Source of the DNA: an uncultured archaeon
Lineage (GTDB): Archaea > Thermoplasmatota > Penumbrarchaeia > CAZSUE01
Length of the DNA stretch: 28,912 nucleotides
Direction of reading: 5' to 3'
NCBI GenBank assembly: GCA_964609045.1
Contig: CAZSUE010000001.1
Span: 7,450-36,361 of the forward strand
The notes beneath the pieces were generated by a model, which saw nothing but the letters and a program-made list of their open reading frames with translations, was not told the origin of the DNA and did not search any database. Made by a program: the position numbers and the translations under genes. Positions 9,266 through 26,808 of this stretch are shown piece after piece. Each line of letters begins with the position of its first letter. Within the stretch, counting starts at the first letter, position 1.

Positions 9266-12200
9266 TTATTCGAACTCGGCACCGCATTGCGGGCATGTGG
9301 TCGCAGAGAGCGGTATGAGCGCGCCGCACTCGAAACACTCGACCAACTCTTCCTCGTCCGCATAGATCTCCGGCTCTTTTTCGTCCGCGTAGACCTCCGG
9401 CTCTTCCTCGCCGTACGGTTCGGGCTCGGCGTATTCCGTATCCACATCGACATCCTCGAAATCGCCCTCGTCGAAATCATCTTCGTAGCCTTCGTATTCG
9501 CCCATGTCTTCATCGATGAACTCTTCTTCGAGCACCGCACCGCAACTGGGACACACCGACGCCGTCAGCGGGATCAACTCACCGCATTCGAAACACTCGA
9601 CCATCTCTTCTTCCATCGGTGTGTATTCTTCCGCTTCTCCGAACTCTTCGGCCGGATATTCTTCGGCCTCGGGCGGGGCTTCGAATGTCTCGACATCCTC
9701 GAGGTCTTCGAACTCCTCACCACCGTATTCAGCGAACTCCTCCTCTTCGGCCACCTGTTCGAACTCGATCCCGCAGTTGGGACAGACCCGATCGTCCGCA
9801 CTCAACGGCTCACCGCATTCTGGACATTCGAACTCCGCTTCTTCGGGGAAGGGTTCTTCTTCGTAGCCCAGTGGCTCCTCCTCTTCGCCCAGTTCTTCTT
9901 CCTCGACCGGTTCTTCTTCTTCCAGCGACGGCGCCCTGATCGGTTCCAGCTCCTCGGCGCCCTCCAGTTCGCTCTCCATCGTCGGCAGTTCCTCGGTGAT
10001 ACCGACCTCGAGCACGCTGAGCGGACCGAACTTCGCCCCACATTCCGGACAGACCTCGGCACTGATGGGAATGACCGCGTGACATTCGCCACACTCGACC
10101 TCCTCACCGAACTCTGCACCACATTTGGGACATTTGGTCGCCGCGATATCGATGGCGGTACCACATTCGCTACATTCAGCACCCTTCGCTTCGCGGCTGC
10201 GATAGATGAAGAATATCGCCGCGCCGACGATGCCGATAACGATGAAGATGATAATGATCGCCCAGGGGAACGCTGCCCCTTCGGTCTTTTCCTCGCCCCT
10301 GATCGAGACCTTGATCTTATCCTCCGGCTGCCAATCGAGGTTGTACTCCTCGTTTTCCACCTCAAAGATCAGGTAGCGGTCCACCGGATTCGTATAGGTC
10401 GCCTCATCCACACCGGGGATGAACTGAATTTGGAAATTACCGTTCTGGACCGATACCGTCTGTTGGCGCGTGTTGCCGAGGAAGCCGACGGTAACGGTCA
10501 GTGTCTGGACCGGGTCGCCGTTATCGAACCGCACCTCACCGCTGACGATGTACGGCTCACCGTTCGTCGCTTCGCTCGGTGCATTGAACGAATCGAAGAT
10601 GAGCGCTTTCGGCTTGATCTTGACCGTGATATTGAGGACGAACTCGTTGTTCGTCTCGTTCGCCTCGCGCAGTTCGTTCCGCGGGTCCAGTGTGACGGAG
10701 ATATTGTGCCGCCCGCCGATCGAGGGGACGATCCAGTAGAAACTTAGGTTAAGCCGCTGTCCGACCCCGATCGATACGAACTGGGAGACGATGGTACGGT
10801 TGTCGTCCCAAATGGTCAGGTTCACCGCAGGCAAAGGCCTAAGCCAGTCATTCCGGAGGGTGAGGTTGATCGTCATGTTCGTCTCCTCCTCCACCGTGGC
10901 GTTCATCTCCACTGGCTCACCGGTAACGGAATAATTGAACGATTGATCGACCAGCACGAGGTCCGGTAGCGGGAGTACCTCGATAGTATCGGCCAGATCG
11001 TTGTTGCTCTCGTTGAGCTCGCCGAAACGATCGGCCGAGTCCACGACTGCCGCGATCATATGCGTGCCGATCGTCGTCGGTGTCCATGGGACCGGGAATG
11101 TCACCTTATTGTTCACCGCGAGCGGCAACTGATCGGTGATGCGGCCGTTCTCGGCGCTGCTGAAGTTCGCGATCGTCGTCCCATCATCGGTCACGGACAA
11201 TCGGAACGCGCCGATCGCATCGATACCGACATTCTGTACCGTGATCATGATCGTGACCTCGTTGTGCACGGCGGTGTAGTTCGTATCGGTCCGCTTGGCG
11301 GTGTCGAAGCTGATATCGCTCATCTTAACATCCATGCGCGTAAAGACCTCGACCTCTACCGTGTCGTTATTGTTCTGATAGTTCGACTCGTTCGTCAGCC
11401 CGTACTTATTGACCTGTACCCGGAAGGTATAGGTGCCGATCTGTGGCGCAGTCCAGTCGATAGAGACGACCGTGGAGTCGATGAGCCCGTGTTCGAGGTC
11501 CGCGCCCTCGAGCTCGTCGATGGTGGAGACATTGAGCTGCACATCGGTCTCACCCGCGAGGAAGAACACGACATCGATGAGTTCCGCGTCGGTCTCACCC
11601 TCGTTGAAGACCTCGGCGACGATCGTGATCGAGGTGCCTTCGCGCACCGTCTTCGGCGCGGACGCGTCCACACGCAGATCGGCGCGGGTCTTGACATTGA
11701 CCGGTCGCTGCGCGGTGTTGTCCTCTTCATTCCCTTCTGCGATCACATCGTTCTCGTCGAGCACGACGCGTATAAAATGGCGCCCTTCGACTGCGGGTTC
11801 CCAGTTGACCGCAAGTTCGCGGTCGCCCATTGCGGCCAGCGTGATGTTCCAGCTGGCGATCTGCGTCTGCTCCTCACCCACGACATCGTAGAGCGTCACA
11901 TTGAACCGGCGTGCATCGTCTTCGCCCTCGTTCTGGATAAAGAGCTCGATATAGACCGTCTCACCACGGACCACGCTGTCGGACGAGAGGGAGATATCCA
12001 TGGGGTTGATGAGGAGGTTCGCTTTCGTCCGTGCGGCCAGAGTCGCCGTATGTTCGTTGTTCTGTTCGTTGCGTTCGAGGATGTCGCCGTTCTCGTGGTT
12101 GATGTACGGCGGGTCGACGACCACACGGAAGGGGTGCTCGCCGGAATAGTCGAGGCTCCAGTTCTCCGCCGTGATCGTCACCGTCTCGCCGTAGTCGAGA

Positions 12201-15200
12201 TCCACCCGTTCCTCGTGGACGAGGGTCGTACTATCGTAGATGACGATATTGACATTGCTGACATTGATCATCCCGTCGTTCATGATCTGGGCCGAGATAT
12301 CGATCACATCGCCGATAACGGGGTCGTTATCCGAGAATGTCAGTGAGATGGGGTTCAGATCGACGCGCGGAAATACATACTGGACATACTCGAGGCTATT
12401 GTTGTTCTCGTTGTTCTCGAGGATCGCATTGGTATCGTCGACCACCACGCGAATGGTATGGTTGCCGGCGTTTTGTGGCGTCCAGATGACCGAGGCGGTG
12501 CTGGATGCGCCCGCACGCAGCGTTTCGATCGTCGTCTGGTCGAACGGCTCGTCGTCATCGTAGAACTGGACCATAATATCGGTGGCGTCGCTGCCGCCCA
12601 CATTGCGTACCGTCACTTCGATGCGGTTCTCGTAGCCCACCACGATCTCGGGTGCGTCGATCGGATCGAACTGGAGACTGCCCGGGACCGGGATGAAATC
12701 CGGAAGCAGGGTGGTGAATTGGAGCGTCGTATCCACATTCTCGTTGGCGATACAGTAGCCCACCTCGGAACTATACATCGCGCCCTGGAAATCATAGTTT
12801 GCCACCAGCCGATAGTTCCCGACGAACCAGTTCCGGTCACGGGTCACGATGGAGCCCGCCACCCGGAACAGCGCTTCGCCCTCGTCGTCGGTGAGCCCGT
12901 TCGTATAGAGGCGCCAGGAGCTCGTGCGCATCGAATAGTTGTACACACTTACATTCGCCCCTGCGATCAGTATCTCGTTGGGGTCCTCCGTGTGCACGGT
13001 GAGCCACCAATAGGTGGTAAAGGATGAACGCGTGTCGGTGATGGTCAGTGCCGGCGTCTCACCGGTGGGGCGCAGCGTATCGGTGCCGCACGCCGTGGTA
13101 TTCCCATCGAGCTCCAGCGGTTGGTTCAAGGTACTGTTCGTCATCTCCAGCACGGTGTTGTTGAATTTGAGCACCGCGCCATCGCTCGCCGAGAGCGTGG
13201 CCTCATCGAATTCGATCGTGTCGCGATCATCTGTCTGGTCGAGGACGATGCTCCCCGCCATCACCGTGGAGCGCTGAATGAGGATACTCGACGCGTCGAG
13301 GAGGATCGGATCATCCGTCTGGACTGTCGAATCGACGATCTGTACCTGCGGCGTCGCATCCCGCGTGGCGGGGGCTGCGGATGCGTTGGCAAAAGAGATC
13401 GCGCCGTTGAGGTCGGTATTGGAACGGAGCGCGAGCATTGCGTTGTCGGCCATGACGATGCGCTGGACATCGAGCTGCGAATCGCTCACCTCCAGCGAGG
13501 CGTTGTCGTAGAGATAGATTGTGAGCTCGGCGTTGCTCGTCAACACCTCGTTGGCGATCTCGAGGACACCGTCGCCGTCGACGAGGATGTAATAGCGATG
13601 ATCGGATTGCTGTTGCATCTGAAATGTGCCATCTTTCAATATCAGATGACCGTGGACGATCAGATTGCCCGTGTGGATCCGGTTCGATTCGATGGTCATG
13701 GTCGGCGCGTTGTGCCGTACCACGATATCGAGCCCACTGGTGGAGAAAACGGTGACCAAGACCGAGCGTGCGTTGTTCAGCTCATCCCCCTCGGCGAAGT
13801 CGTCATTCGGGTCGAGAACGAGCTCGAGCCGATGCATGCCAGCGTTCATCGCCGTCCAGACATACTGGACCGTTTCGGTGCTATTGGCGGCGAGGGTGGC
13901 GATCGTGAGCGTCGTCACGGTGATGGCACTGCCCTCGTGATGATCGACCAGCTCCACCGCGATATCGCTGAGATCGGAGCCGCCGGTATTGACCACCTCG
14001 GCGGTGACCGTCACCGGTTCGTTCTCCAGTGGATGGTCGGTGGAGACCGCGATGGACCCGATGCTCAAGTCCGGCCGAGCCACCACTTCCACCGTTCGCT
14101 GCCGGGTATTGTCCTCTTCGTCGAGCTCGACGATATCATCTGCTGGATCGAGCCGCACCATGAGAAGATGATCGCCGGTGGAAGACGGCGTCCATGTGAA
14201 CGCAACCTCGGTGGACACTCCCACTGAGAGTGACGCAACGACAGTGTCGTCCACTTCGACATCATCGACCAAGAGCACGACGGATATATCCTCCGCGACG
14301 ATATTGCCCTCATTGACCACCGTGGCGGTGACCTCCACCGTATTATCGACCATGGGACGATCGTTCGAGAGGACGATCTGTGAAGGTTGGATCGCGAGAT
14401 CGGGCACGAGATCGCGCAATACAATGACCTGCGCTTGGTTCTCGTCATCCATGACCGCCACCGATTCGTTGACGAGACCGGACGATTCCGCTTCGATACG
14501 ATAGTTGCCCACAAACCATTCACGCACCGACTCTTGCACGCTTGAGGGGAGCTCGAAAAGGATGTCGCCCGATACGGTGGTGGTCTTCGTACGATAGAGC
14601 GTTTCGTCCGTGGGATCAGCCTCGTCAAAGGAATAGACGCGCACCGTCGCCCCCGCAACGGCCATACCGTTGCCGTCTTGAACGGTCACCGTGAGCCACC
14701 AGTAGGTGCGATAGACCGCGGTGTCGTACACGGTCACATCGAGCTGCTCTCCGCCCATGTCGAGGCAATTGGTGCAATCTGCGGTGGTCGCGCCACGCAA
14801 CACGAGCGCCGGCGCAAAGCTCGTGTTCTTCGCAATGAGGCTCGTATTATCGAACACAAGCGTCCCTCCGGGTGTATCGAGTATAAGATCGTTCAATGAC
14901 ACCGTCTCGGTGTCGGCGTCGGTATCGAACGTGATCGCGGAACCGGTGAGGGTCGCGCCGTCCACCTCGACGCTGGGTGCGACGAGATGAAGCGCGTTCG
15001 TCGACGAGATCTCGGACTGGCCGGCGATCGTAACGCTCGCACCCGTTCCCGCCTGCCAATCCACCTGGCCATTGATCGTGGCACTTTCCACCGTCACGCT
15101 CGCGCTATCGCGCCCGACCAACGCCGTAAGCTCGAGTGTGGACCGCACCACCTGAACAAAACTCGTGTCGTACGCGTAGCAATAGAGCGGTTCGGCGCTT

Positions 15201-18200
15201 TCGAGCGTACTATCCTCGAAACGGATCTCGCCGGCGCCACTGACTTGGATGAAATAGCGATGGCTCTGATCTTGATCCATGGTGATCGAGGCATCGCGGA
15301 CGACCAATGTTCCCTCCACGAGGATATTGCCCGACACGATCCGATCGGTGCGGATCGTTTTCGTATCCCCCGCTGGCACCACGATATCGAGCCCGTCGGT
15401 GGAGAAGGCGTTGAACACGGTACGATGCTCGTTATTGCTCTCGTTCGACTCCGTCACCGTTCCATTCGGGTCCACCGTCAAAACGATGGAGTGCCGACCG
15501 GCGCGGGCGACCGTCCATTGGAACGAGAACGGCTGGGTCGTACCTGCATCGAGGTCGTATTCCGCCCGTCCGGCCTCCACCTCACCGTCATTCACCACGA
15601 TAGCCACCGTGGTGAGGTTGATCTGGCCGTCGTTCACCAGCTCGCCCGCAACAGTGACCGTATCACCCACGAAGACATGCGCGGGCGGCATACTGAGGCT
15701 GAGGGATTCGACCCGCAAGTCCGGGTTCATGACCACGGAATAAACCACGGTGGCGTTATTGTTCGTATAATCGATCTCGGTGACGGTCCGCTCCGCATTG
15801 ATGGCCACAAGAATTGTGTGCTGACCCAGCGTACCGGATCGCAACTGGACGAAGAATTCGTCGCTCTGGGTGCCGGCGTCAAGATCGACCATCCAGCTCT
15901 CGATCAACTCATCGTCGTCATAGAGCTCGATCATCGCGTTCTCCGCGGCAGCGGCGCCGCGGTTCCGGATCATGAAACTGACATTGATAGATTGTGAAAG
16001 GCTGGGCTGTACCGTCGACAGCTGGATATCGTCCGCGAGGACCTCGAGATCGGGTGCCATTCCGCTGAAGTTGAGCGTGGTCGCACGATTCCCCTCCTCG
16101 ACGGTGACAAATTGGACCGAGGACGATTCGCCGTAATAGCGAGCGGTCACCCGATAGTTGCCGACAAAAGCCGTGCCGTCGCTATCGACCACCGCACTCA
16201 ACACCCTGAACAACGCCGCGCCGTCGGAGTCGGTGACACCGTAGCTGTCGTTCGAAAAGACGCTCGGGCGCGCGGTGGAATAGTTCCAGACCGTCACGCT
16301 GGCGCCTTCGACCGAAAGCGCGTTGGCGTCCACGGTCGCCACGGTCAGCCACCAATATTCTCTCGCATGTGAGCCGCTGTCCGCGATGGAGAGCGCCACG
16401 ACGGTGTTGGTGATATTCGCGCTGCTCCCACCATCGAGCATGAGCGCTTGTCCGATCGAACAATTGGTCAGGTTCAGCTCCGCACCCTCGAAGACCAATG
16501 TTGCGGTCTCCTCGCTTTCGATGATGGTTTCCTCGAGATGGATCTCATCGGCGTCCGCGCTGGCGTCCAGCGCGTATTCGACGCTGTCAAACTCCGAGTA
16601 TCGGATCGTAATGGTCGTGGCGTCGAGCCGCATGGTGTCGATGGTCGCCACCGTTCCATGGATCTCGACGGTGGTGCCGGTATCGGCGACGAAAAGCGAG
16701 AGCGCTGCAATGGAATCTTCGAGACGGATCCGACCGCCGTTTTCGAGATAGAGGCTCAGATCAAGATTACTATCCAGTGCGGCATTGTCGGTGACCAGCT
16801 CACCGCCGTCGATCCAGATGAGATACCGCTGCGATGCGCTCTGGCGAATATCGAGGGCCGAGTCGTTGATATAGAGCGTGCCGCGGACGATCACATTACC
16901 GGAAAGGACCACATCGGTGGTGATCGATTCCACCTCGCCGTCGGGCACCACGAGATCGCTGGTGGAATGGGAATAAGCGCCGATGGTCTCCGACCGCGTA
17001 TTGTTCTCCTCGTTCGCTTCCACATACCGGTCGGTGGTGTCAATGCGCACCTCGAGGATGTGATCGCCCGCGCTCGTAAAGACCAGTGCCGGGATCCAGC
17101 TCACGGTCTCACCTGCAGCGAACGACTGCTGCGTCGTCGCCTCCAGTGCGCCGTCGAGGTAGAGCTCCACATCGATGTCCAATACCGGGCACAGACCGTC
17201 GTTGGTCAACTCTACGGTGACATCGAGCGTGTCGTCGACGAAGGTGTGCATGGAACTCGGCTGCAAGGCACTAATCAATAGGTCGGGGCTGGGGACAACC
17301 GTCACCGCCGCCGAGGCATCGTTGTTCGCATAGGACGATTCGATGATCTCCTCGCCGGGATTCACCATGACCCATACCGTCTGCGCCATGGCCTCGTCCG
17401 GTGTCCAGCTCATATTCACAACTGCATTGCCCATGGCCGAGATATTGACCCTCTTCGATCCGATCAGTACGGTATCGTGGTAGAACTCGACGAGCACCTC
17501 TCGTGCCGCGGTGGACCCGAGGTTATCGACCTGTACTTCGATCGAGACCGGGTTGGCCACAGAGGGTTGATCGGGAGAGAGCGTGATGTTTTCGCTCATG
17601 ACCGCGAGATCGGGTATCAGCGCGTCCAGGGTGAGTTGGACCTCTTTATCCGTGTACCGCATGGAGATGTCGCGCGTATCCGACACGAGCGTATCGATCG
17701 TTGCGTTCACCTTGTAGTTCCCGATGAAGAACGAGCCGGTGTGATTGATCACCGTGCCGATGGTGGCAAACCGCACCCACCCCTCTGCACCGGTGGTGGC
17801 GTTCGCATAGAGAGCGTCGACGAGGCCGCGTTCGATCTTCGTCACGGTGACATTCGCTCCCGCCACCGCCGCGGCGTTCGCGTCGATTACGGTGACGGTG
17901 AGCCACCAATAACGTCGAGCCACGGAGTTCTCGTCGGCGATCGCGATGGCGATCTGCTGCCCCGACGAGCGGCTCGAACTGGTGATATTGAGCGTCGAAG
18001 AGCTGTCGAGCGCGATATCGAGTTCGAGCGTGGCGTTGACCAATGTGATTTCAGCATTCGTGAATGTAAGTCCAGTGGTGGAAGCGGGTGCGCAGGTGAG
18101 ATTCTCGATGGTGATCGTATCGGCGTCGTCGGATCGATCCAGTGTGATCGTTTCCGCATCGATGACCGCGTCGGTGACCGAGAGCGTTCTTGCGTCGACA

Positions 18201-21200
18201 TCGATCGTATCCGCGATAATGTGGCTATCGTTTCGGATCGTGAGCGAAGTGGTTGATTGCGCGCTCATCGAGGTGACCGTGAAACTGGTGCCGTCGATCA
18301 AAAGCTCACCACCGTCATGGACAAAGACCGCGAGCGCCTCGTCGCTGGAGAGCGAGGAATCGCTGAGCGTCATGATCCCGCCGTCGACCCAGATACAATA
18401 ATCCGCCACGCCCTCTTGCAGTATCTCGAGTGCGCTATCGTCGACTTCCAGCGTGCCGCGCACGATGATATTCCCGGATTGGATGAAATCCGCGCCGATC
18501 TGCGCGGTGTGGCCGTCGGCGACGACGATGTCCTCGCTGGAGACACTAAATATCTGGACATCGAGCTGTTGCATATTATTGTCGAACGCGGTCTCGTTGA
18601 TCGTCGCCTCGGGATTGATGTGAACCGTAATTTCATGGGCGCCGTAGCTCCCCGCCGTCCACTCGTACGAGAAGGCGCGGGTCTCCATGCCGTCGAGATC
18701 GACGAGCCAGCTCTGCTCGGTTTCGCCGTCGGCCATGAGCACGATCACACATCCGTTGACGGCCGCAGCCTTCGTATTCTCCACCTCGAACGCGATGGTG
18801 ACGGTATCGCCGACGAAGAGCGGTTCTGTGATACCGGTGGCAGCCGCAGTGGCGTTCAGTGCCACTACTTCCAGATCGGGCGTCTCGTATACGGTGATCG
18901 TCTGCGCCATCGAATTGTTCACGAGCGTGACCTCGTCCATGGTCGAACTGACCACCACGCTGATCATACGGATCCCCGTGGCGTTGGGTACCCATGTCCA
19001 CTGGAGCGTTACATTGTCTGCGCTATCCAGTTGCGACACCGTGGTCTGATCGTACTGCTCACCGTCGATGAGGAGCGCGACCGTGAAGTCCCACGCGCTG
19101 GTCCAGCCCGCGTTCTCGACGACTACGGTGATAACCGCCTCGTTCGAGACCGTCACATTCACGGGAGAGAGCGCGATGGATTGCACACCGAGGTCGGGGA
19201 GGAGGTTCGTGAACTGGAGCGTCGCGTCGAGGTTCGAATCGGTGACGACCACCGGGCTCGTTGCGGTAGCGTTCCCGTCGAGCGTCGCGTTGATGCGATA
19301 GTTGCCCACCGCGAGGCGCTTGGCCGCGGTGATCCGATGGCTCTGGACACAGAACCGGACCATCCCGTCAATATCGGTAGCTGCGTCATCCACCATCTCC
19401 CAGCTCGCCGTCGCATTCTTGTACTGGTAGAGTGCGACGGTGGCGCCCGGGACCGGTGCATCGTTCGCATCGACGGTGGTCACCGTGAGCCACCATTTGA
19501 TCGCCACAACGGCGCTGTCGTTCACCGTCACCGCACCGGTGGCGGAATCCACGATGGTCGCATTGGTCGCGCCCTCGAACTGCAGCGGTTGGTTCAGTGT
19601 GGAGTTGCGTATCTGCATGGTGGTGAGGTCGAGGGTGAGCGCGTTGGCGTTCGCCGCGTCGATCGTCGACTCGTCGATGAGCAGCTGATCGAGCGTGGCC
19701 GCGTCCAAGATGCCGATATGGTCACCCGCCAGCGTGCTGTTGGCGATCGTGATCGAGGGTGCGCCGAGATCGATCGTCGACGCGCTCAGCGTCGAGTCCG
19801 TGATGGTGATGGTATCGTTCCCGATGGCCAGCGCCCCCTCGACATCGAGTTGCGACCCGTCGATAGTGATCGCATCGGCCTGCGCACCGTGGACGAGATT
19901 GAGCGTCGCATGGGTATCGATCAGCGTCAGCTCCGCGCCCTTTTCGAGATAGAGGTCCAGCGGGAGACCGCCTTCACTGACGAGGACGGCGCTATCGAAG
20001 ACGAGGTGCCCGGAACCGTTCACTTGGATCTTATACCGGTTGTTCGGCGTCTGGTCCACCGTGAAGGAGCCGTTACTGATAGTGAATGTATCGTTCACGA
20101 AGAGGTTGCCGCTGAGATAGAAATCGTCGTCGATATCTGCAGTGGTCGCAGTGGTGATGAGATCGTCGCCAGTGGTGGAATAGACGATTGCGGCGGCTAT
20201 GATCGTGTTGTTCGTCTCCACCGTTTCCGTAAACGCATTGTCGGGGTCGACGACGACACTGAGCGTATGCTCGCCCGGATCGTCCGCCGTCCATGTAAAA
20301 GAAAGCGTAGAGTCTCCGTTTGCGACGATATCCTGGCTCATATTGGCCACCTCCACTCCGTTGTCGTAGAGCGCGACGGTGACATTGGTCAGGTCCACCG
20401 CGCCGTGGTTCTCCACCCGGACTTCCACAGCGACCTCCTCGCCGCCCAGTGGATGATCGCTACTCAGCGATAGATCGCTCACCGCCAGATCGGGGTAGTG
20501 CTGGATCGTGTACTCGACCCATGCCGTATTGTTCGTCTCGTTGCTTTCATCGATATGATCGTCCCAATCGACCTCGACGGTGAGGTTGTAGGTACCGGTG
20601 GCGGCGGGTGTCCAGTTGAAGGCGACTGTTGTTGAATCGTTGGCACCGAGGATAGTGATCGTGGTGCTCTCTATCTCGGTCCCGTCCACGGTAAGCCGTG
20701 CAGCGATCGTATCGGCCGCAACTTCGCCGGTATTGAGCACGGTCGCCTCGACGGTGAAGGTCGGTCCGACGATGGGCAGTTCATCGCTCACAACGATAGT
20801 GCTCACCTCGAGGTCCGGCTTGAGGGCGGCGAAGGTGAGATTCCGGACGAGGTTCGCATCCACCACCACGGCGGAGACGAGATCGCTCTGTTCGGTGAGA
20901 TAGGTCGCGTTGACGCGGTAGTTGCCGACAAAGTAGGTGTTCTCGGCGGTGATGCGATAGCTTTGGACCGAAAAGAGCGCCGTGCCCGTGGCGTCGGTCT
21001 CCTCGTCGTCGACCAAGACCCATGTCTGTGTGGCGTTCCGATATCGATAGAGCGAAACGGTGGCGCCCTCGATCGGTAACGCATTGGCGTCGCGTGCGGT
21101 CACGGCCAGCCACCACTCGAGATGCACCTCCGCGTCGTCGTTGACGGTAATGGCGCCGGTGCTCGAGTCGAGGACGGTCACATCGGTGGCGCCGCCCACG

Positions 21201-24200
21201 GTGATCGGCTGGCTCAGCGTGGCGTTCTGGATCAATACTGTGTCCTGGTCGAAGAGAAGGGCGGAGGTATCCACCGATTGGATCACCGTCTCAGCGATGA
21301 CCATCGTGTCGTAGGATGCGTCCTCGAGCACTGCGACGGTGTCGGCGTCGATGACGCTGGAGAGGATGGTGACATCCGTTGCGCCGAAATGGAGTTCGTC
21401 GGCGTCGAGGGTGGAGTTCGCAATGGCGAGCGTGCCGTTGCCGAGCACCAACGCCGTTGCGGATTCCACCGCGGAATCGTTCATGAGGATGGTGTCGGCC
21501 CGAGCCGCGTGGAAGATATTCAGCGTGAGATCGGCGCTTTCGAAGGTGATGTTCCCACCCGATTCGACATAAAGATCCAGCGGTCGTCCCGTATCACTGA
21601 CGATCGCCGCGTTCTCGACGACGAGATGACCGCTGGCGTTCACCTGGATCTTGTATCGGTTCGCCGGCGACTGGTCGATGGTCAGAGTGCCGTTGCGAAC
21701 GATGAAGGTATCGTTGACATAGAGGTTGCCGCTGAGATAGAAATCGCTCTCGATGGGCGCGGTGGTGTCGTCCGTAATGAGATCGTCGCCGTTGGCGGAA
21801 TAGACGATCAGCTCCGATGTGATGCTATTGTTCGCTTCATTCGTTTCTGTGATCATATCCATGGGATCGATGCTGACATTGAGGGTATGCTCGCCCGGGT
21901 TTTCGGCAATCCAGTCGAACGAGAGCGTCGTCTCGGTGCCGCCGTCGAGGTCGAACGACTGCGTGGCCGCCTCCACGCCGTTATCGAAAAGAGTGGCGTA
22001 GACGCCGGTCAGATCGACCATGCCCGCATTGCGCACCACCGCGTCGACGGTCACGGTCCGTCCACCCTCGGGATGGTCGTGAGAGAGCGTGATCGTCGTC
22101 GGGAAAAGGTCCGGGTATGCGTTGACCGTATAGATGATCCATTCGGTATTGTTCGTCTCATCCATTTCCACGATGGTATCGTTCACGTCGACCGTTACGG
22201 TGAGGTTGTAATCGCCGATCGCATCGGGTGTCCAAAGGAATGAGACCACCGTGGTTGCACCGGCATCGAGCTCGGCGATAGTGGTGGTGTTCGTTCTTGC
22301 ACCGTCGACGAGGAATCGTACTGCGACATCGTACGCCGCAACGGCGCCGTCGTTCTCGATGGTGGCGTTGACGGTGACCGGCGCGCCCGTCACGGGGAGG
22401 TCGACTTCGACCTCGACCCCGTCGGGGAGGGAGAGGTCCGGTTGCAATCCACCGAACTGGAGTGTGCGAGCGACATTGCCGGTGGTGACCACTGGATAGA
22501 GGACATTGCTCCGTGCTGCGCCGTCGGAGGCGTTGATGCGATAGTTGCCCATGAAATAGCTGGTTGAGACGGTCTCGTAGTAGCTCTGGGCGCTAAAGAC
22601 GGTAACACCGTCGGCATCGGTGGGTTGCGTGGTGACCCTCTGCCATTGCTCGTTAGCCGCGTTGTAACGGTAGAGGTCGACCATCGCTCCTCCGACGGGG
22701 TGTGCGTTGGCGTCCACGGCGGTGACGCTGAGCCACCAGGAGGTATTCATCACTGCGTTCCCGGCGAGGGTGTAGACCATGGTCGTATTCAATCGCGCAA
22801 CCTCGCTCTCACCCTTGAAGGTGAACGGTAGGTCAGGGGTGGAGTTCACAAAAGAGCCGGATAGGACCTCGATCTCGTTGGTCACCGGTGAGGCGATGGA
22901 GAACTCCGACTCCACCACCGTCAATGTATCGATCGTTGTAGCGGGGTCGAAGAGGAACGAATCGCCGATCAATTGGACATTATCGGTCTCGAACTGCGCC
23001 GCGGCGAATTCATAATTGTCGGCATCCAATGAGGAATTGACGATTTGCACGCTGCTCGCTGCGAGGACCATATCGTTGGCAAGCGTGAGCGTCGAGTTGC
23101 GGATGACGACAGCGGTGGCGCCCGAGGCGTGGATCAGATTGAGATCGAGCGTGGAGCGTTCCACGATGAGCGTGCCACCGGCCTCGATATAGAGGTCGAG
23201 CGGGCGACCGGTCTGGCTTTGGAGCACCATATCGGAGAGCGTGAGATCGCCGGTGCTGTTGATCTGGATCTTGTATCGGTGTGCGGGGGACTGGTCGATG
23301 GTCAGCGTCCCGTTCGCTATCGCAAAGGAGCCGTTGACGAAGAGGTTGCCGCTGATCTGGAAATCGGATCCGATGTCCGGCGTGTCGTCCTCGGCGATAT
23401 AATCGTCGCCGGTGGCGGTATAGACGATCATCGCGCCTTCGAGGGTGTTGTTGAGCTCGTTGGATTCTGCGATGATATCCAGTGCGTCGACGGTGACCGT
23501 TAATTGGTGCTCGCCGGGTGCGGCGGCGGTCCATGAGAAGGGGACCAGCGTACCGCCCGATGCGGGGACGGTCACGCTCTGGTTACCGATCTCGGTGCTC
23601 CCGTCGAGGAGCGTAACGGTGACGCCTTCGAGTTCTTCAACGCCGCTATTGTTCACCGCGACATCGATGGTGACCTCCTCACCGGCCAGTGGATGGTCGC
23701 TTTCGATCGTCATCATCGATGCGTAGATATCGGGTCGGGCCGCGATGGTGATGAACTGTTCAGCGGTATTGTTCGTCTCATCATCTTCCGCGATAGCGTC
23801 CAGCGGGTCGACGATCACGGTCACATTGTAGGACCCGTTCGCCGTTGGCGTCCATGCGAGCAAGACGGTGGTGGAATCGTGCGCCTCGATATGCGCGATC
23901 GTGGTGTTTGCGACCTCGGTGCCATCGACGAGGAGCCCAACGAGGATATCGTCGACGCCGTAGCTGCCGTTGTTGTAGACGGTTGCGTTGACCGTTAATG
24001 ACTGATCGGGGATGAGCATGCCCGAGACATTCGTGATGGCGGCGGTCAGATCGGGGACGAGGTCGGCATACTGCAATTGGAGCTGGTTGTTCTCGTCCGA
24101 GACGATCACCGACCGTCCGCTGTGGTTGTAATAGACGCCCTCGAAGAGATAACTGGCGTTGACGAAATAGTTGCCGACGAAGAGTTCGTTCTCGGCGGTG

Positions 24201-26794
24201 AGGATCGTATCCTCCGCGACGAAGAGGGCGTTCCCCTCCGCATCGGTGGTTGCCGTTGCATACGGATAGACCTCTTGCGGAGTGCCTTGAGTATAGTTAA
24301 AGACCGATACGGTGGCGTTCTCGATTACAAATCCGTTGGCGTCCACCACATGCACCGCGAGCCACCAGGCCCGGGTGAGGTTCGCGCTATCGCTGAGCGT
24401 CGCCGTTACCATGTCACCTTGGAGCGTGGTCGTATTGATGAAGAGTGCGTCGGTGGCCCCTTCCAGTTGGAACGACGGGTCGACGCTGGTATTGATCATG
24501 CGGAACGGATCGGTGCCCGCGACCCGTATGGCGTTGCTGGATGCGATATCGAGGCGCGTATCGTTGATATAGATCGCCTCGGAGCCGCTGTCGCGGTCCA
24601 GTGTGAGTTTCCCGAGGGTGAGATCGCTGTTGTCGATGGCGACGAGATCGACATCCAGCATCGCCCGCGGACTCGTGACCGTCGCGTTCGCGATGCGTAT
24701 CGCGCTGCCGGTACTGTCGATGAGGTTCACCGCGCCGGTGAGGTTCGTGTTCTCGAGCGCGATCGTCGCACCGTTCCTCCCGGCGAGCGTCCCGAGGTTC
24801 AATTCTGAGCCCTGGGTGATGAACCGTCCGCCGTCGAGGACATAGAGATTGAGCGGGTAGTTGCTCGAGAGGGTGCACCCGTCGAGGGTAAGCTGGCCGT
24901 CATTTCGGACGAGGATATAGAAATGCTGCGTCGCGCTCTGTTGGACGAAGAACGAATCGGCGCTGATGGTGAGGTCGCCTTCGACGATCAAATTGCCCGA
25001 AAGGATCTGGCTCTCCGTATAGGTCTTACTTTGCGTAGGGCCGATGTAGATATCGGTACCGCTGGTGTAGTATGGCGGCCCCGGCGGCGCGAGGTAGGTC
25101 CCCAGCGTGACATTCTTGGTCTCCACGCCGGTTTGGAAATTGGGGTATGGATCGAATGAGATACTGGGCAGCGGCTTCGTATAGTAAGTGTCGGCGCCCA
25201 CTTCCAGGCTCGCGTTCAATTGGTAGTTCACCGTGGTATAACTATTGGGATAGCTCGAGGCGTCGATGCGGTCGGTCTTCATGGGGAGCCGTACGCGACC
25301 GTTCTTATCGGTGACATTGAAATCGGTCTCATCGCGGCCGAGATGATCGAGCACCCAGGCGGGCGGGATGTCGCTTATTGCGGTGGTGTTCGAATAATAA
25401 TAGCGATCGACGGTGGCGTTCCCGATGGGGACCGAGGCCGCATCTGAGACAAAGACATCGAGCCAGCGATAGATATTGACCGCGGAATCGTTCTCATTAT
25501 CCCCAAACGAGAACGGCGGTTCTTTCAAAAACGGGTTCGACGGGGTCTGGTCAGTGTCGATGGTGATATTGTAGAGGTTCGCCACGGAGCCGTTGATAAG
25601 ACGGATCGTATTCTTGAGCGCGCTCTCCTCCAGCGGCTTGAAATCGATCATGATCGCGCTGTCGATGGCCGTGAAGGTCGAGTTGTCGAGGTTGATGTCG
25701 CGGCTCGTGGTGAGTACGCCGATCCAGACATAATCGAACGAGACATTGTTCCCCGCAGGATCGTTATTGGTGAAGGTCACATTGAGCGTCGCGATATCGG
25801 CGGCGGTGGTGATCCCTTCGTCGTAGAGATTGCAGCTGAGCTGGGCCTCGCCCGTCGTGGCGGTGGGAACACCGAGCGTGCCGTTGATGTCCCCATCTTC
25901 CGTGGAGAAATTGACCGCGCCGGTGCCGACATACCCCGACTCGGTACGATATTGCGCGAGGAGGACGATATCGAAGAACGGCTCTTGCACGCCGGCGAGA
26001 TCGAACCCGTCGAGCCACATCGTCTGGTTGGACTCCACGGTATAAGATATCTCGTCGTCGTAATAGAGCATCGGCTCTGAACCGGTGGCGTTGTCTTCGG
26101 CGTCGTTGATCTCGTCGACCAAGAGCTTGGCGTCCCATTCTTCCGCGGCGGCGTTCTCGTAGAGGTCGAGGAACTCGGACTCGATGGAGGTTATATTACT
26201 GTTCTTAAAGATCATGACCGGCGCATCGTCGTTATCGTCCGGCGTGGGATAGCCGTCGGGCGGTGTGAGCCCCTTGAAGGTCGAGTTGCGGAGGGTCAGC
26301 GTCGCGTTGGTGGTGGTGAAAGTGCCGGGGAACTGGAATGTCGAGTCCTCGATCTCGCTGTGGTTGGCCTCCGAATCGGCGATCTCGAAAAAGAGCTTCA
26401 GATACGGTTTGGAGAGGTCTGTCGCCGTGGTGACCGTCGCATTATCGAACTCGATCTTCCCGCCGTCGATGACACGGAACGCATATTCGTGGTTGTCGTC
26501 GTGGGTGTATGGATCGCCGTCCGGGCCGGAATCCTGCAAAAAGATGATCGAGGCATTGCGTACGATAAGTACGCCGCCGTTAGTCACCGTGATATTGCCT
26601 CGTTGCCGAAATGTCGTGTCCTCGATCACCATTGTTTCGCCGTCGACGAGCACGGGGCCCGTGTTCGAACGCACCCCCGAAGCCTCCACTTCGGGTTTGA
26701 GAAATGCGAACTGTCCAAAGAGTGAAGACATCAATACGCCAATAATGAAGATCGAAACCGCTTTCGTGCGCCAATCAAACCGATCGAGTTGCAT
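9266..26794 (-). CDS. Giant (about 5842 aa) single-pass cell-surface glycoprotein/adhesin: beta-helix, carboxypeptidase-regulatory-like Ig and CARDB repeats, TM helix, cytoplasmic zinc-ribbon/acidic tail
   Basis: One uninterrupted 17.5-kb ORF. Start at ATG 26794 with SD GGAGAGGT 6 nt upstream. Signal peptide MQLDRFDWRTKAVSIFIIGVLMSSLFGQFAFLKPEVEA. Twenty PDL...D...I.E..E.NN CARDB-like repeats and nine (W/R)WL.V...D.N...GNY units. TM AFPWAIIIIFIVIGIVGAAIFFIY (about 10203-10272). Five CxxC-x10-CxxC ribbons. Confidence 0.93.
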   Translation of the reverse strand: MQLDRFDWRTKAVSIFIIGVLMSSLFGQFAFLKPEVEASGVRSNTGPVLVDGETMVIEDTTFRQRGNITVTNGGVLIVRNASIIFLQDSGPDGDPYTHDDNHEYAFRVIDGGKIEFDNATVTTATDLSKPYLKLFFEIADSEANHSEIEDSTFQFPGTFTTTNATLTLRNSTFKGLTPPDGYPTPDDNDDAPVMIFKNSNITSIESEFLDLYENAAAEEWDAKLLVDEINDAEDNATGSEPMLYYDDEISYTVESNQTMWLDGFDLAGVQEPFFDIVLLAQYRTESGYVGTGAVNFSTEDGDINGTLGVPTATTGEAQLSCNLYDEGITTAADIATLNVTFTNNDPAGNNVSFDYVWIGVLTTSRDINLDNSTFTAIDSAIMIDFKPLEESALKNTIRLINGSVANLYNITIDTDQTPSNPFLKEPPFSFGDNENDSAVNIYRWLDVFVSDAASVPIGNATVDRYYYSNTTAISDIPPAWVLDHLGRDETDFNVTDKNGRVRLPMKTDRIDASSYPNSYTTVNYQLNASLEVGADTYYTKPLPSISFDPYPNFQTGVETKNVTLGTYLAPPGPPYYTSGTDIYIGPTQSKTYTESQILSGNLIVEGDLTISADSFFVQQSATQHFYILVRNDGQLTLDGCTLSSNYPLNLYVLDGGRFITQGSELNLGTLAGRNGATIALENTNLTGAVNLIDSTGSAIRIANATVTSPRAMLDVDLVAIDNSDLTLGKLTLDRDSGSEAIYINDTRLDIASSNAIRVAGTDPFRMINTSVDPSFQLEGATDALFINTTTLQGDMVTATLSDSANLTRAWWLAVHVVDANGFVIENATVSVFNYTQGTPQEVYPYATATTDAEGNALFVAEDTILTAENELFVGNYFVNASYLFEGVYYNHSGRSVIVSDENNQLQLQYADLVPDLTAAITNVSGMLIPDQSLTVNATVYNNGSYGVDDILVGLLVDGTEVANTTIAHIEAHDSTTVLLAWTPTANGSYNVTVIVDPLDAIAEDDETNNTAEQFITIAARPDIYASMMTIESDHPLAGEEVTIDVAVNNSGVEELEGVTVTLLDGSTEIGNQSVTVPASGGTLVPFSWTAAAPGEHQLTVTVDALDIIAESNELNNTLEGAMIVYTATGDDYIAEDDTPDIGSDFQISGNLFVNGSFAIANGTLTIDQSPAHRYKIQINSTGDLTLSDMVLQSQTGRPLDLYIEAGGTLIVERSTLDLNLIHASGATAVVIRNSTLTLANDMVLAASSVQIVNSSLDADNYEFAAAQFETDNVQLIGDSFLFDPATTIDTLTVVESEFSIASPVTNEIEVLSGSFVNSTPDLPFTFKGESEVARLNTTMVYTLAGNAVMNTSWWLSVTAVDANAHPVGGAMVDLYRYNAANEQWQRVTTQPTDADGVTVFSAQSYYETVSTSYFMGNYRINASDGAARSNVLYPVVTTGNVARTLQFGGLQPDLSLPDGVEVEVDLPVTGAPVTVNATIENDGAVAAYDVAVRFLVDGARTNTTTIAELDAGATTVVSFLWTPDAIGDYNLTVTVDVNDTIVEMDETNNTEWIIYTVNAYPDLFPTTITLSHDHPEGGRTVTVDAVVRNAGMVDLTGVYATLFDNGVEAATQSFDLDGGTETTLSFDWIAENPGEHTLNVSIDPMDMITETNEANNSITSELIVYSANGDDLITDDTTAPIESDFYLSGNLYVNDTFIVRNGTLTIDQSPANRYKIQVNASGHLVVENAAIVSDTGRPLDLYVESGGNITFESADLTLNIFHAARADTILMNDSAVESATALVLGNGTLAIANSTLDADELHFGATDVTILSSVIDADTVAVLEDASYDTMVIAETVIQSVDTSALLFDQDTVLIQNATLSQPITVGGATDVTVLDSSTGAITVNDDAEVHLEWWLAVTARDANALPIEGATVSLYRYRNATQTWVLVDDEETDATGTALFSVQSYRITAENTYFVGNYRVNATYLTEQSDLVSAVVVDANLVRNLTFAALKPDLEVSTIVVSDELPIVGPTFTVEATVLNTGEVAADTIAARLTVDGTEIESTTITILGANDSTTVAFNWTPAATGTYNLTVEVDWDDHIDESNETNNTAWVEYTIQHYPDLAVSDLSLSSDHPLGGEEVAVEVRVENHGAVDLTNVTVALYDNGVEVANMSQDIVANGDSTLSFTWTADDPGEHTLSVVVDPDNAFTETVETNNTIIAAAIVYSTTGDDLITTATTADIDDDFYLSGNLFVNDTFTISNGSFTVDQTPNNRYKIQVNGSGHLVFDSAVLVSEGGLPLDLYLEKGAELTLIDTHATLNLVHGAQADAITIDGSQLDVEGALAIGNDTITITDSTLSASTIDLGAPSITIANSTLAGDHIGILDAATLDQLLIDESTIDAANANALTLDLTTMQIRNSTLNQPLQFEGATNATIVDSATGAVTVNDSAVVAIKWWLTVTTVDANDAPVPGATVALYQYKNATASWEMVDDAATDIDGMVRFCVQSHRITAAKRLAVGNYRINATLDGNATATSPVVVTDSNLDATLQFTNLLPDLGVQSIALSPVNVTVSNEAVITVVVENAGWTSAWDFTVALLIDGEQYDQTTVSQLDSADNVTLQWTWVPNATGIRMISVVVSSTMDEVTLVNNSMAQTITVYETPDLEVVALNATAAATGITEPLFVGDTVTIAFEVENTKAAAVNGCVIVLMADGETEQSWLVDLDGMETRAFSYEWTAGSYGAHEITVHINPEATINETAFDNNMQQLDVQIFSVSSEDIVVADGHTAQIGADFIQSGNIIVRGTLEVDDSALEILQEGVADYCIWVDGGIMTLSDSSLSSDEALAVFVHDGGELLIDGTSFTVTSMSAQSTTSLTIRNDSHIIADTIDVDARTLSVTDAVIDAETITLDRSDDADTITIENLTCAPASTTGLTFTNAEITLVNATLELDIALDSSSTLNITSSSRSSGQQIAIAIADENSVARRYWWLTVTVIDANAAAVAGANVTVTKIERGLVDALYANATTGAEGWVRFATIGTVINHTGSFFIGNYKVNATIDTLVSDTRDISMRYTDKEVQLTLDALIPDLAVMSENITLSPDQPSVANPVSIEVQVDNLGSTAAREVLVEFYHDTVLIGSKRVNISAMGNAVVNMSWTPDEAMAQTVWVMVNPGEEIIESSYANNDASAAVTVVPSPDLLISALQPSSMHTFVDDTLDVTVELTNDGLCPVLDIDVELYLDGALEATTQQSFAAGETVSWIPALVFTSAGDHILEVRIDTTDRYVEANEENNTRSETIGAYSHSTSDLVVPDGEVESITTDVVLSGNVIVRGTLYINDSALDIRQSASQRYLIWIDGGELVTDNAALDSNLDLSLYLENGGRIRLEDSIAALSLFVADTGTTVEIHGTVATIDTMRLDATTITIRYSEFDSVEYALDASADADEIHLEETIIESEETATLVFEGAELNLTNCSIGQALMLDGGSSANITNTVVALSIADSGSHAREYWWLTVATVDANALSVEGASVTVWNYSTARPSVFSNDSYGVTDSDGAALFRVLSAVVDSDGTAFVGNYRVTARYYGESSSVQFVTVEEGNRATTLNFSGMAPDLEVLADDIQLSTVQPSLSQSINVSFMIRNRGAAAAENAMIELYDDDELIESWMVDLDAGTQSDEFFVQLRSGTLGQHTILVAINAERTVTEIDYTNNNATVVYSVVMNPDLRVESLSLSMPPAHVFVGDTVTVAGELVNDGQINLTTVAIVVNDGEVEAGRAEYDLDAGTTQPFSFQWTVARAGRHSIVLTVDPNGTVTESNESNNEHRTVFNAFSTDGLDIVVPAGDTKTIRTDRIVSGNILVEGTLVVRDASITMDQDQSHRYFIQVSGAGEIRFEDSTLESAEPLYCYAYDTSFVQVVRSTLELTALVGRDSASVTVESATINGQVDWQAGTGASVTIAGQSEISSTNALHLVAPSVEVDGATLTGSAITFDTDADTETVSLNDLILDTPGGTLVFDNTSLIAKNTSFAPALVLRGATTADCTNCLDMGGEQLDVTVYDTAVYRTYWWLTVTVQDGNGMAVAGATVRVYSFDEADPTDETLYRTKTTTVSGDILFELPSSVQESVREWFVGNYRIEAESSGLVNESVAVMDDENQAQVIVLRDLVPDLAIQPSQIVLSNDRPMVDNTVEVTATVVNEGNIVAEDISVVLLVDDVEVDDTVVASLSVGVSTEVAFTWTPSSTGDHLLMVRLDPADDIVELDEEDNTRQRTVEVVARPDLSIGSIAVSTDHPLENEPVTVTAEVVNTGGSDLSDIAVELVDHHEGSAITVTTLTIATLAANSTETVQYVWTAMNAGMHRLELVLDPNDDFAEGDELNNARSVLVTVFSTSGLDIVVRHNAPTMTIESNRIHTGNLIVHGHLILKDGTFQMQQQSDHRYYILVDGDGVLEIANEVLTSNAELTIYLYDNASLEVSDSQLDVQRIVMADNAMLALRSNTDLNGAISFANASAAPATRDATPQVQIVDSTVQTDDPILLDASSILIQRSTVMAGSIVLDQTDDRDTIEFDEATLSASDGAVLKFNNTVLEMTNSTLNQPLELDGNTTACGTDTLRPTGETPALTITDTRSSFTTYWWLTVHTEDPNEILIAGANVSVYNYSMRTSSWRLYTNGLTDDEGEALFRVAGSIVTRDRNWFVGNYRLVANYDFQGAMYSSEVGYCIANENVDTTLQFTTLLPDFIPVPGSLQFDPIDAPEIVVGYENRIEVTVRNVGGSDATDIMVQFYDDDEPFDQTTIETLRAGASSTASVIWTPQNAGNHTIRVVVDDTNAILENNENNNSLEYVQYVFPRVDLNPISLTFSDNDPVIGDVIDISAQIMNDGMINVSNVNIVIYDSTTLVHEERVDLDYGETVTITAENWSLDYSGEHPFRVVVDPPYINHENGDILERNEQNNEHTATLAARTKANLLINPMDISLSSDSVVRGETVYIELFIQNEGEDDARRFNVTLYDVVGEEQTQIASWNITLAAMGDRELAVNWEPAVEGRHFIRVVLDENDVIAEGNEEDNTAQRPVNVKTRADLRVDASAPKTVREGTSITIVAEVFNEGETDAELIDVVFFLAGETDVQLNVSTIDELEGADLEHGLIDSTVVSIDWTAPQIGTYTFRVQVNKYGLTNESNYQNNNDTVEVEVFTRMDVKMSDISFDTAKRTDTNYTAVHNEVTIMITVQNVGIDAIGAFRLSVTDDGTTIANFSSAENGRITDQLPLAVNNKVTFPVPWTPTTIGTHMIAAVVDSADRFGELNESNNDLADTIEVLPLPDLVLVDQSFNYSVTGEPVEMNATVEEETNMTINLTLRNDWLRPLPAVNLTIWDDNRTIVSQFVSIGVGQRLNLSFYWIVPSIGGRHNISVTLDPRNELREANETNNEFVLNITVKIKPKALIFDSFNAPSEATNGEPYIVSGEVRFDNGDPVQTLTVTVGFLGNTRQQTVSVQNGNFQIQFIPGVDEATYTNPVDRYLIFEVENEEYNLDWQPEDKIKVSIRGEEKTEGAAFPWAIIIIFIVIGIVGAAIFFIYRSREAKGAECSECGTAIDIAATKCPKCGAEFGEEVECGECHAVIPISAEVCPECGAKFGPLSVLEVGITEELPTMESELEGAEELEPIRAPSLEEEEPVEEEELGEEEEPLGYEEEPFPEEAEFECPECGEPLSADDRVCPNCGIEFEQVAEEEEFAEYGGEEFEDLEDVETFEAPPEAEEYPAEEFGEAEEYTPMEEEMVECFECGELIPLTASVCPSCGAVLEEEFIDEDMGEYEGYEDDFDEGDFEDVDVDTEYAEPEPYGEEEPEVYADEKEPEIYADEEELVECFECGALIPLSATTCPQCGAEFE
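9354..9407 (-). repeat. In-frame 27-bp tandem duplication in the acidic tail (EPEVYADEK/EPEIYADEE)
   Basis: TCGTCCGCATAGATCTCCGGCTCTTTT (9354-9380) followed by TCGTCCGCGTAGACCTCCGGCTCTTCC (9381-9407). Confidence 0.85.
13004..24367 (-). repeat. Intragenic supra-module repeat with a period of about 1.55-1.69 kb
   Basis: WW codons of the WWL.V motif at about 24362, 22733, 21110, 19490, 17903, 16349, 14696 and 13004. A 26-bp identical block AGAGGTTGCCGCTGAGATAGAAATCG occurs at 20101 and 21721, with a near copy at 23341. Confidence 0.9.
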
Positions 26795-26800
26795 GGTATT

Positions 26801-26808
26801 ACCTCTCC
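26801..26808 (-). promoter_or_regulatory. Shine-Dalgarno site of the giant surface-protein gene
   Basis: Minus strand GGAGAGGT followed by 6 nt and ATG 26794. Confidence 0.6.

Follow-up and report, generated by a model that had tools for sequence, protein, structure and literature searches.

The window analysed here, a stretch of 28,912 nucleotides (C1:7450-36361, where C1 is contig CAZSUE010000001.1), carries a gene for a protein of 5,842 amino acids. The protein is real, anchored in the membrane and exposed on the surface of an uncultured archaeon of the Thermoplasmatota that comes from a microbial mat. As judged by comparison with its relatives, this giant protein is the longest member found of a Thermoplasmatota-wide, undescribed and uncharacterised family, in other words an expanded form and not a singular one. 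In our reading, to which we give a probability of about one half, it is a type-I membrane glycoprotein whose segmented extracellular rod would serve as an adhesin or spacer, multivalent and of long reach, that is held to a cytoplasmic partner.

Gene, start codon and topology

The gene is one uninterrupted open frame, 9266-26950 on the reverse strand of the window, in which translation likely starts at the ATG at 26794. This start is favoured because GGAGAGGT sits 6 nt upstream of it and an A/T-rich, TATA-like stretch lies 42-51 bases upstream (together the likely candidate expression signals of the gene), because the product is then identical in length to the public gene call, and because members of the family likewise begin directly with the signal peptide. 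With the alternative ATG at 26950 as start, the signal sequence would be preceded by 52 residues that are not hydrophobic.

The initial annotation of this DNA had proposed a signal peptide, one transmembrane (TM) helix and a zinc-ribbon tail, a topology which is borne out by the hydrophobic stretch at amino acids 12-33, the TM helix at about 5510-5532 and the ten CxxC pairs. These pairs make up five C4 ribbons at amino acids 5541-5837, all of them after the TM helix and within the 310-amino-acid tail that follows it. The product is strongly acidic: the ectodomain contains 14.9% Asp plus Glu and 4.0% Lys plus Arg, and the tail 35% Asp plus Glu. Moreover, the ectodomain holds 151 N-glycosylation sequons against 66 ± 7 in shuffled sequences (maximum 87 in 1,000 shuffles), a 2.3-fold enrichment, and the cytoplasmic-side tail holds none; the distribution of sequons therefore fits the predicted division into outside and inside. 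No PGF or PEF motif of the archaeosortase/sortase signals PGF-CTERM and PEF-CTERM occurs in the giant protein, nor does GG.G.D, the signature of RTX nonapeptide repeats (GGxGxD), and its sole LPVTG is internal, lying within a CARDB domain, such that it provides no functional LPXTG anchor.

Domain architecture and structure models

Hidden Markov models (HMMs) built from the protein's own repeats give the domain order as a tip unit, seven cassettes of beta-helix, small sandwich and two CARDB domains, an eighth helix-sandwich module and six CARDB domains in a stalk (8 matches each for beta-helix and small sandwich, 20 for CARDB), C-terminal to which are one further sandwich, the TM helix and the five ribbons on acidic linkers (Table 1). 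The motifs WWL(T/A)V and SGN(L/I)xV recur every ~540 amino acids. In Pfam, CARDB (PF07705) matches 20 stretches (4+8+8), three segments scoring 234-352 bits against a cut-off of 22.7, and the zinc-ribbon models (PF12773, PF13248, PF13240) match five stretches, with DZR at 74.7 bits (cut-off 27.3) and Zn_ribbon_3 at 93.2 bits. The tip unit (amino acids 40-589) has no Pfam match, and neither Beta_helix, NosD, Pectate_lyase nor Glyco_hydro_28 matches anywhere in the giant protein at E ≤ 0.01; a G8 match is marginal and confined to cassette U1 (24.3 bits, cut-off 22.9).

Table 1. Features of the giant gene and its product, with coordinates in the window.
Feature	Window coordinates	Strand	Remarks
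Complete coding sequence	9266..26794	(-)	5,842 aa, 631 kDa; stop codon within coordinates
Likely expression signals	26801..26845	(-)	Read from DNA: GGAGAGGT 26801-26808 and TATA-like box 26836-26845
Signal peptide region, aa 1-39	26678..26794	(-)	Hydrophobic core aa 12-33, VEA-S site
Tip unit, aa 40-589	25028..26677	(-)	Beta-helix, inserted sandwich, second sandwich; AlphaFold2 pLDDT 78; family-conserved
Variable tip insert, aa 214-365	25700..26155	(-)	Acidic disordered loop and sandwich
Cassette U1, aa 590-1138	23381..25027	(-)	Beta-helix, small sandwich, two CARDB
Cassette U2, aa 1139-1678	21761..23380	(-)	Beta-helix, small sandwich, two CARDB
Cassette U3, aa 1679-2218	20141..21760	(-)	Cassette chosen for AlphaFold2 model
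Cassette U4, aa 2219-2763	18506..20140	(-)	Own-repeat HMMs
Cassette U5, aa 2764-3288	16931..18505	(-)	Own-repeat HMMs
Cassette U6, aa 3289-3811	15362..16930	(-)	Own-repeat HMMs
Cassette U7, aa 3812-4361	13712..15361	(-)	Own-repeat HMMs
Eighth module, aa 4362-4697	12704..13711	(-)	Beta-helix (ninth including tip) and small sandwich
Membrane-proximal stalk, aa 4698-5390	10625..12703	(-)	Six CARDB domains
Last small sandwich-like domain, aa 5391-5503	10286..10624	(-)	Weak: CarboxypepD_reg E 7e-4, below cut-off
Single TM helix, aa about 5510-5532	10199..10267	(-)	Followed by YRSREAK
Juxtamembrane double zinc ribbon, aa 5541-5585	10040..10174	(-)	Pfam DZR 74.7 bits; family hallmark
Acidic disordered tail and three C4 ribbons	9269..10039	(-)	Ribbons 9773-9826, 9542-9595, 9284-9337

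The AlphaFold2 model of cassette U3, made from an alignment of the seven cassettes, is all-beta, with a mean predicted local distance difference test score (pLDDT) of 90.9 and a predicted template modelling score of 0.68. By exhaustive VIA structural comparison, its residues 1 to ~215 form a right-handed parallel beta-helix, which matches Vag8 (Z 18.1), HxuA (17.8), pertactin (17.3) and EtpA (16.4) and, further, AlgG/AlgE4, tailspikes and polygalacturonase. Residues 216-312 form a small sandwich like 3e8v (Z 13.9), and for residues 313-424 and 421-527 the counterparts are the solved CARDB domains 2l0d (Z 15.5, root-mean-square deviation 2.5 Å) and 3idu (Z 15.7, 1.5 Å), respectively. A Foldseek search of the PDB with the four-domain model gave generic multi-Ig matches only, the beta-helix surfacing solely in the exhaustive VIA search. 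In the tip model, made from a 22-sequence alignment, the helix rungs (residues 8-171) are interrupted by an acidic loop, which is disordered (181-215), and by an inserted sandwich (218-329), after which come more rungs and a second sandwich (405-505); this model too matches beta-helix proteins (VIA Z 17.8), and more than 40 beta-helix structures match the U3 helix and tip models at Z 13-18. Linkers are 0-5 amino acids long inside cassettes and ~12-25 between them, the latter modelled less confidently, a pattern that suggests stiff segments of ~16 nm joined by short hinges.

On the whole, therefore, the architecture given in the initial annotation stands: the frame is intact, and Pfam, the own-repeat HMMs and the AlphaFold2 models agree with its module order, the segment-wise comparisons that it had called for confirming CARDB, beta-helix and zinc ribbon. 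Its small Ig domains of carboxypeptidase-regulatory type hold as a sandwich fold, with a marginal match to that family: the best CarboxypepD_reg (PF13620) score is 28.2 bits, below the cut-off of 32.3; the further Ig-like domain that it placed near the membrane may be present, the match there being weak.

It had also seen an acidic motif, D..n.I.E.nE.NN, in most CARDB domains. This holds, in that across the 20 aligned domains the first Glu of E.(N/D)E.NN is present in 20, the second in 15 and the NN in 18. Because the solved domains 2l0d and 3idu also carry the motif, it is a general hallmark of CARDB and nothing peculiar to this protein. From Pyrococcus furiosus the solved domain is PF1109 (3idu, 2kl6), from Methanosarcina acetivorans it is MA_4588 (2l0d); both resemble those of the giant (E 1e-9 to 2e-8, Z 15.5-15.7) down to the C-terminal VD...E.NE.NN, with the difference that they are isolated single domains and the giant has 20. 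The title of PDB entry 3idu mentions bound di-metal ions, and Ca-dependent stiffening of the rod through the motif may be envisaged.

A family across Thermoplasmatota

When a profile of the helix and sandwich module was compared with 1.84 billion cluster representatives, 627 proteins matched at E ≤ 1e-3 and 47 at E ≤ 1e-30. Among the best 150 of these 627, which were scanned with the module HMMs, one plan recurs, namely a signal peptide, a tip, n cassettes of helix, sandwich and CARDB domains, a CARDB stalk, a TM helix and usually six CxxC pairs (three ribbons); n is mostly 1-2, with values of 2-4 for a small number of proteins that are 2,400-4,500 amino acids long and 8 in the giant only. Typical members are about 1,200-2,000 amino acids long, and the second largest found has 4,499. 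The tip is likewise shared (phmmer E down to 1e-56), its profile matching 69 of 301 Thermoplasmatota genomes at E ≤ 1e-10, including the majority of those in the class to which the window belongs, and reaching into several further lineages. Of 41 genomes, made up of 40 sampled relatives and the source genome, 39 have a match to the module profile, for the most part in a frame 1,850-2,000 amino acids long; ten such frames, taken in full, consist of tip, helix, sandwich, 7-8 CARDB, TM helix and 3-4 ribbons, and by this domain content each is the giant protein minus seven inserted cassettes. The module order that the initial annotation had proposed looking for in Thermoplasmatota occurs there with 1-8 cassettes. 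A word-indexed search with residues 1-5000 returned only the giant itself, which reflects the length window and word index of that search and not uniqueness, and a related-locus search with the C-terminal 1,481 amino acids returned no relatives.

Members are found in the cultured Aciduliprofundum boonei T469 (ADD07822.1/WP_012997017.1, 1,503 amino acids) and in Aciduliprofundum sp. MAR08-339 (AGB03914.1, 1,720 amino acids), other examples being RLF72796.1, UCH88033.1 and MCD6111160.1. The relatives are annotated as 'hypothetical', 'CARDB domain-containing' or 'zinc ribbon domain-containing protein', and no protein of this arrangement was found described in the literature searched; the statement of the initial annotation that no characterised protein with the arrangement is known is to this extent upheld, with the amendment that the giant belongs to a widespread family. 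What it shares with that family is the signal peptide, a homologous tip, the helix and sandwich module, the CARDB stalk, the single TM helix and the juxtamembrane double-ribbon motif; where it differs is in having 8 modules, 20 CARDB domains, 5 ribbons and 5,842 amino acids as opposed to the 1-2 cassettes, 3 ribbons and 1,200-2,000 amino acids that are typical.

Some members stand beside other genes of note. On the closed chromosome of a Thermoplasmata metagenome-assembled genome (MAG; GCA_020356005.1, CP070629.1:1988746-2014298), an 1,850-amino-acid member is followed by two proteins of ~2,000 amino acids with weak Pilin_N and CARDB matches, and a second member lies about 20 kb away. In JGI 3300028920, the gene of a 2,935-amino-acid member precedes one for a DUF835 protein and two for small GTPases of Arf/Ras/Roc type.

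Origin, variation and conservation of the modules

In the best maximum-likelihood tree, computed on 50 modules, a branch with a support of 0 sets apart the eight modules of the giant, an arrangement compatible with one clade, and they group with modules of the nearest relative (G004) and of a paralogue on contig C85 of the same genome (SH-aLRT 90); the clade of U2, U3 and U4 has a support of 100. In other proteins with several cassettes (e.g. P0006, P0011, P0023) the modules cluster largely by protein, most forks being unstarred, and separate expansions are therefore indicated. Within the giant, CARDB domains in the same position of the cassette are 31.7% and 32.1% identical, as compared with 27.8% between first and second positions, and this slightly greater likeness fits duplication of whole cassettes. 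Read in this way, the length of the protein has expanded independently in several lineages, and in the giant through duplications that are old and have since diverged.

Conservation is distributed unevenly along the chain. The tip insert (amino acids ~214-365) is present in 0, 1 or 2 copies, being missing in many relatives and doubled in others, as would be expected of a ligand-facing end; compared by language-model features, the ESM-Atlas clusters closest to this insert consist of hypothetical proteins, small in size, from tailed phages (score 0.92, recognition under the trust threshold), a weak lead. Against 13 relatives the ectodomain segments are 25-33% identical, and the segment of TM helix and double ribbon 45% (38-53%), with the distal ribbons at 54-66%; the motif ..ECxECG..IP....CPxCG.EF....C.ECG.., directly after the TM helix, is recognisable throughout the family. 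By these identities the exterior is fast-evolving and the tail is the most conserved part. Taken together, the evidence points to a membrane-anchored, glycosylated rod, with distal parts that face ligands and a tail with a conserved cytoplasmic task. In the helix part of the eight aligned modules, the only invariant columns are G, N, V, Q, I, G, S, L and N, and there is no invariant Asp, Glu, Lys, Arg or His.

Function

On the reading favoured here, the protein would be exported by Sec and then heavily N-glycosylated, and its rod would extend roughly 140-175 nm from the membrane, a figure obtained from ~8 rungs per helix (~4 nm) and 3.3-4 nm per sandwich for nine helices and thirty sandwiches, fully extended; the initial annotation had roughly estimated 100-200 nm. 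At this distance the adhesin or spacer may contact the polysaccharide matrix or neighbouring cells in the mat, cassette number setting the reach as in bacterial variable-length stalk adhesins, and the zinc ribbons may tether the rod to a cytoplasmic partner. The beta-helices would then bind instead of catalysing. A role in binding or structure, as distinct from an enzymatic one, is preferred because the helix part has no invariant charged residue, because no enzyme family was matched and because the best fold matches are the passengers of adhesins; polysaccharide would be a candidate ligand. The label 'receptor-like' used in the initial annotation describes the predicted topology together with the conserved tail, there being no signalling domain in the protein.

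Certain points weigh against this reading. The near-universal presence of a short form in the class would suit a housekeeping envelope protein equally well; enzymes are among the structures matched by fold (alginate epimerases and lyases, polygalacturonases), and binding is not told apart from catalysis by the fold alone; the reach is counted from domains and presumes an extended rod; no RNA run was found listed; and gene order reveals no partner of the tail here, since there is no conserved neighbour.

Comparison with known systems places the giant, which is the extreme member of an undescribed and widespread family, as a probable variant among the giant modular surface adhesins and stalk proteins. 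RTX adhesins such as SiiE and MpIBP and the 'periscope' stalks of Gram-positive bacteria are also very large, with tandem sandwich stalks, functional domains held at a distance and lengths that vary between relatives; unlike them, the giant is anchored by a TM helix with a cytoplasmic tail and has neither RTX repeats nor a functional LPXTG anchor. Moreover, its length cannot vary by rapid recombination, because its repeats are old and divergent. The bacterial beta-helix adhesins (the autotransporter passengers pertactin and Vag8; the two-partner-secretion adhesins HxuA, HMW1 and EtpA) share the right-handed parallel beta-helix at Z 15-18, but are only ~11-16% identical to the modules, are exported through outer-membrane barrels, which archaea lack, and have one long helix where the giant has nine short ones in cassettes.

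The near-universal short form also lies at the root of the main rival, which we hold to be possible, at well under even odds: that the family is an S-layer-like or glycocalyx coat protein, in other words a TM-anchored structural component of the envelope, of which the giant is an unusually tall version. The enrichment of sequons and the occurrence of a member in the cultured A. boonei are in keeping with such a role, and Makarova et al. 2016 (PMC4858521) indeed call large C-terminally anchored archaeal proteins 'S-layer like'. The combination of signal peptide, sandwich stalk and C-terminal TM helix resembles TM-anchored archaeal S-layer proteins, for example PySLP of Pyrobaculum arsenaticum, a protein of 292 kDa and 37 nm with 19 Ig-like domains, the 37 nm including a pillar of eight of them (bioRxiv 10.64898/2026.08.21.746120). 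The likeness extends to the archaeal origin, the many Ig-like domains arranged as a pillar and the probable N-glycans. However, the giant is of 631 kDa and PySLP lacks beta-helix cassettes; the family has a conserved cytoplasmic zinc-ribbon tail of 140-380 amino acids, whereas PySLP and its homologues have a short basic tail; PySLP belongs to the Thermoproteota and no sequence relation has been shown. Further, the lattice of PySLP is demonstrated, and one formed by the present family would be a prediction, the likeness being one of general layout. A variation of 1-8 cassettes and of about 1,200 to 5,842 amino acids inside one family, together with a variable distal insert, also sits poorly with a coat, and one ~150 nm deep would lack precedent. 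Where 'S-layer like' refers to type IV pilus loci with an adjacent PilB/TadC-type module (PMC4858521), no PilB homologue lies on the contig of the giant gene, of which ~2 kb remain upstream.

A far less probable alternative is that the rod is a scaffold presenting nine active polysaccharide-processing beta-helix enzymes (lyases, hydrolases or epimerases) on a stalk, which would degrade or remodel mat exopolymers. AlgG, AlgE4, PL6 alginate lyases, polygalacturonases and the depolymerase tailspikes of phages do match at Z 14-16; the best matches, however, are non-enzymatic adhesin passengers, Pfam gives no lyase or hydrolase family at E ≤ 0.01 and only the marginal G8 hit, and the eight modules, whose invariant residues in the helix part are limited to Gly, Asn, Val, Gln, Ile, Ser and Leu, do not show the conserved catalytic acidic or basic residues on the helix face by which polysaccharide lyases, GH28 hydrolases and C5-epimerases are recognised.

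Integrity of the assembly

The initial annotation had noted that a repeat-driven misassembly would undo its reading. Since the cassettes are divergent in DNA (high-scoring segment pairs of at least 90 nt are at most 72% identical, a single one of 57 nt reaching 82%) and the longest exact repeat within the coding sequence is 26 nt, collapse or expansion of repeats by the assembler is implausible. The gene sequence is, furthermore, present in three metagenome runs from microbial mats, all belonging to a single study (word shares 0.71, 0.44 and 0.20), at an even low depth of about 3-4x, 2x and 1x. The contigs from these runs, 200-1,100 bp long, mostly match at ≥ 99% and otherwise at 95-99%, with no joints, and cross at least four cassette borders (23380, 18505, 16930, 15361). 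One run has an in-frame GTC insertion at window position 17095, a strain variation that keeps the frame. Misassembly of the gene is thus unlikely, and that its length and regularity are an artefact, either a repeat-driven expansion or a chimera of paralogues, has next to no claim on belief: the MAG is fragmented (977 contigs, N50 7 kb) with many CARDB genes, the depth is 1-4x and no single contig of the three runs spans the gene, but cassettes that are only 24-44% identical in amino acid sequence, the jointless contigs of three samples, a 3-nt variant that preserves the frame, a coherent domain order and a 4,499-amino-acid relative built on the same plan all stand against it.

Organism and genomic context

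The source MAG of 5.52 Mb is 83% complete and 2.8% contaminated. The archaeal, Thermoplasmatota origin that had been supposed is corroborated by an unsplit segment of RpoB, which has 80-82% identity to MAGs that bear the name Thermoplasmata archaeon or Thermoplasmatota archaeon. Around the giant gene in the window lie housekeeping genes of archaea, namely those for an Lhr-type helicase with an AlkZ-like region, for Hjc and for a methyltransferase. The helicase (471-6164, forward) has 1,897 amino acids, with DEAD, Helicase_C, WH_Lhr and DEAD_assoc domains and a long AlkZ-like C-terminal region, and is followed by the gene for the Hjc resolvase (6283-6900) and by a 656-amino-acid open reading frame (6897-8867, forward) with weak thioredoxin-like and glutaredoxin matches below Pfam cut-offs. 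On the other side of the giant gene, a small divergently oriented gene (27122-27631, forward) encodes a coiled-coil protein with a Lys/Arg-rich tail. This polybasic protein was considered as a partner of the acidic tail and rejected, as it shows no conserved linkage in the loci of ten relatives; homologues of the eight neighbouring open reading frames of the window are absent from these ten loci. Five further members of the family all have different gene contexts; among relatives, the genes seen nearby are, for example, ribosomal genes and that for UvrC, those for Ras-like small GTPases and those for giants with Pilin_N and CARDB.

As to type IV pili, PilB homologues of the source genome lie on contigs C6, C254, C86, C561 and C93, with none on C1, on which only ~2 kb of contig remain upstream. 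A family gene is close to PilB in one (G001) of about 15 class relatives compared, and one further pilus-adjacent case is the 4,499-amino-acid relative (P0003). The only paralogue in the source genome with the same module is the protein on C85, of 1,355 amino acids, with a TM helix and no ribbons. Over a dozen other contigs of the genome also carry DZR-like ribbons that resemble those in the tail of the giant (C404, C411, C741, C391, C116, C489, C138, C6 and others), in the frames on C404 and C411 immediately after a TM helix and at C6:14790-14942 directly after a PilB homologue.

The source organism makes an unusually heavy investment in giant proteins, with about 100 open frames of at least 1,500 amino acids in 5.5 Mb and 123 CARDB matches over many contigs. 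On C29, a frame of at least 5,158 amino acids contains P_proprotein, LTD, MAM, PKD, fn3 and CarboxypepD_reg domains. Another on C13 (3307-19053, forward), of at least 5,249 amino acids, runs past the contig end and has no Pfam match at 1e-5; with 17% Ala, 15% Glu, a richness in Arg and Leu and N-terminal KKGA repeats, it resembles a cytoplasmic protein of giant size with a helical or coiled-coil structure. C31 (348-15074, forward) encodes a complete surface-type protein of 4,908 amino acids, rich in Gly, Ser, Thr and Asp, with a signal anchor, no Pfam match in its first 4,000 amino acids and two C-terminal Cys-rich, zinc-finger-like modules, by virtue of which it is a second giant with a predicted zinc-binding C-terminus.

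Implications

The family bears on how uncultured Thermoplasmatota build their surfaces and attach to partners or matrix, of which little is known. A bolder view of the family, which we put forward as doubtful, would liken it to the integrins, as a link across the membrane of archaea with a thin wall or none, in which the fast-evolving rod binds matrix or partner cells and the strongly conserved zinc-ribbon tail couples physically to cytoplasmic machinery, be it the cytoskeleton, the division apparatus or a motor of the pilus type. Contact on the outside would thereby be transmitted inside, or the cell would pull on what it holds, and the form with eight cassettes and five ribbons would be an extreme, long-reach version. 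In combining a rod length repeatedly reset by cassette duplication, a variable distal end and an unusually conserved zinc-binding cytoplasmic tail, the family makes outside-inside coupling in archaea testable. In this regard the giant, with its eight cassettes as against one or two, is the clearest natural 'ruler' experiment, and the cultured Aciduliprofundum boonei, with its short member, offers a handle for studies of localisation, partners and deletion.

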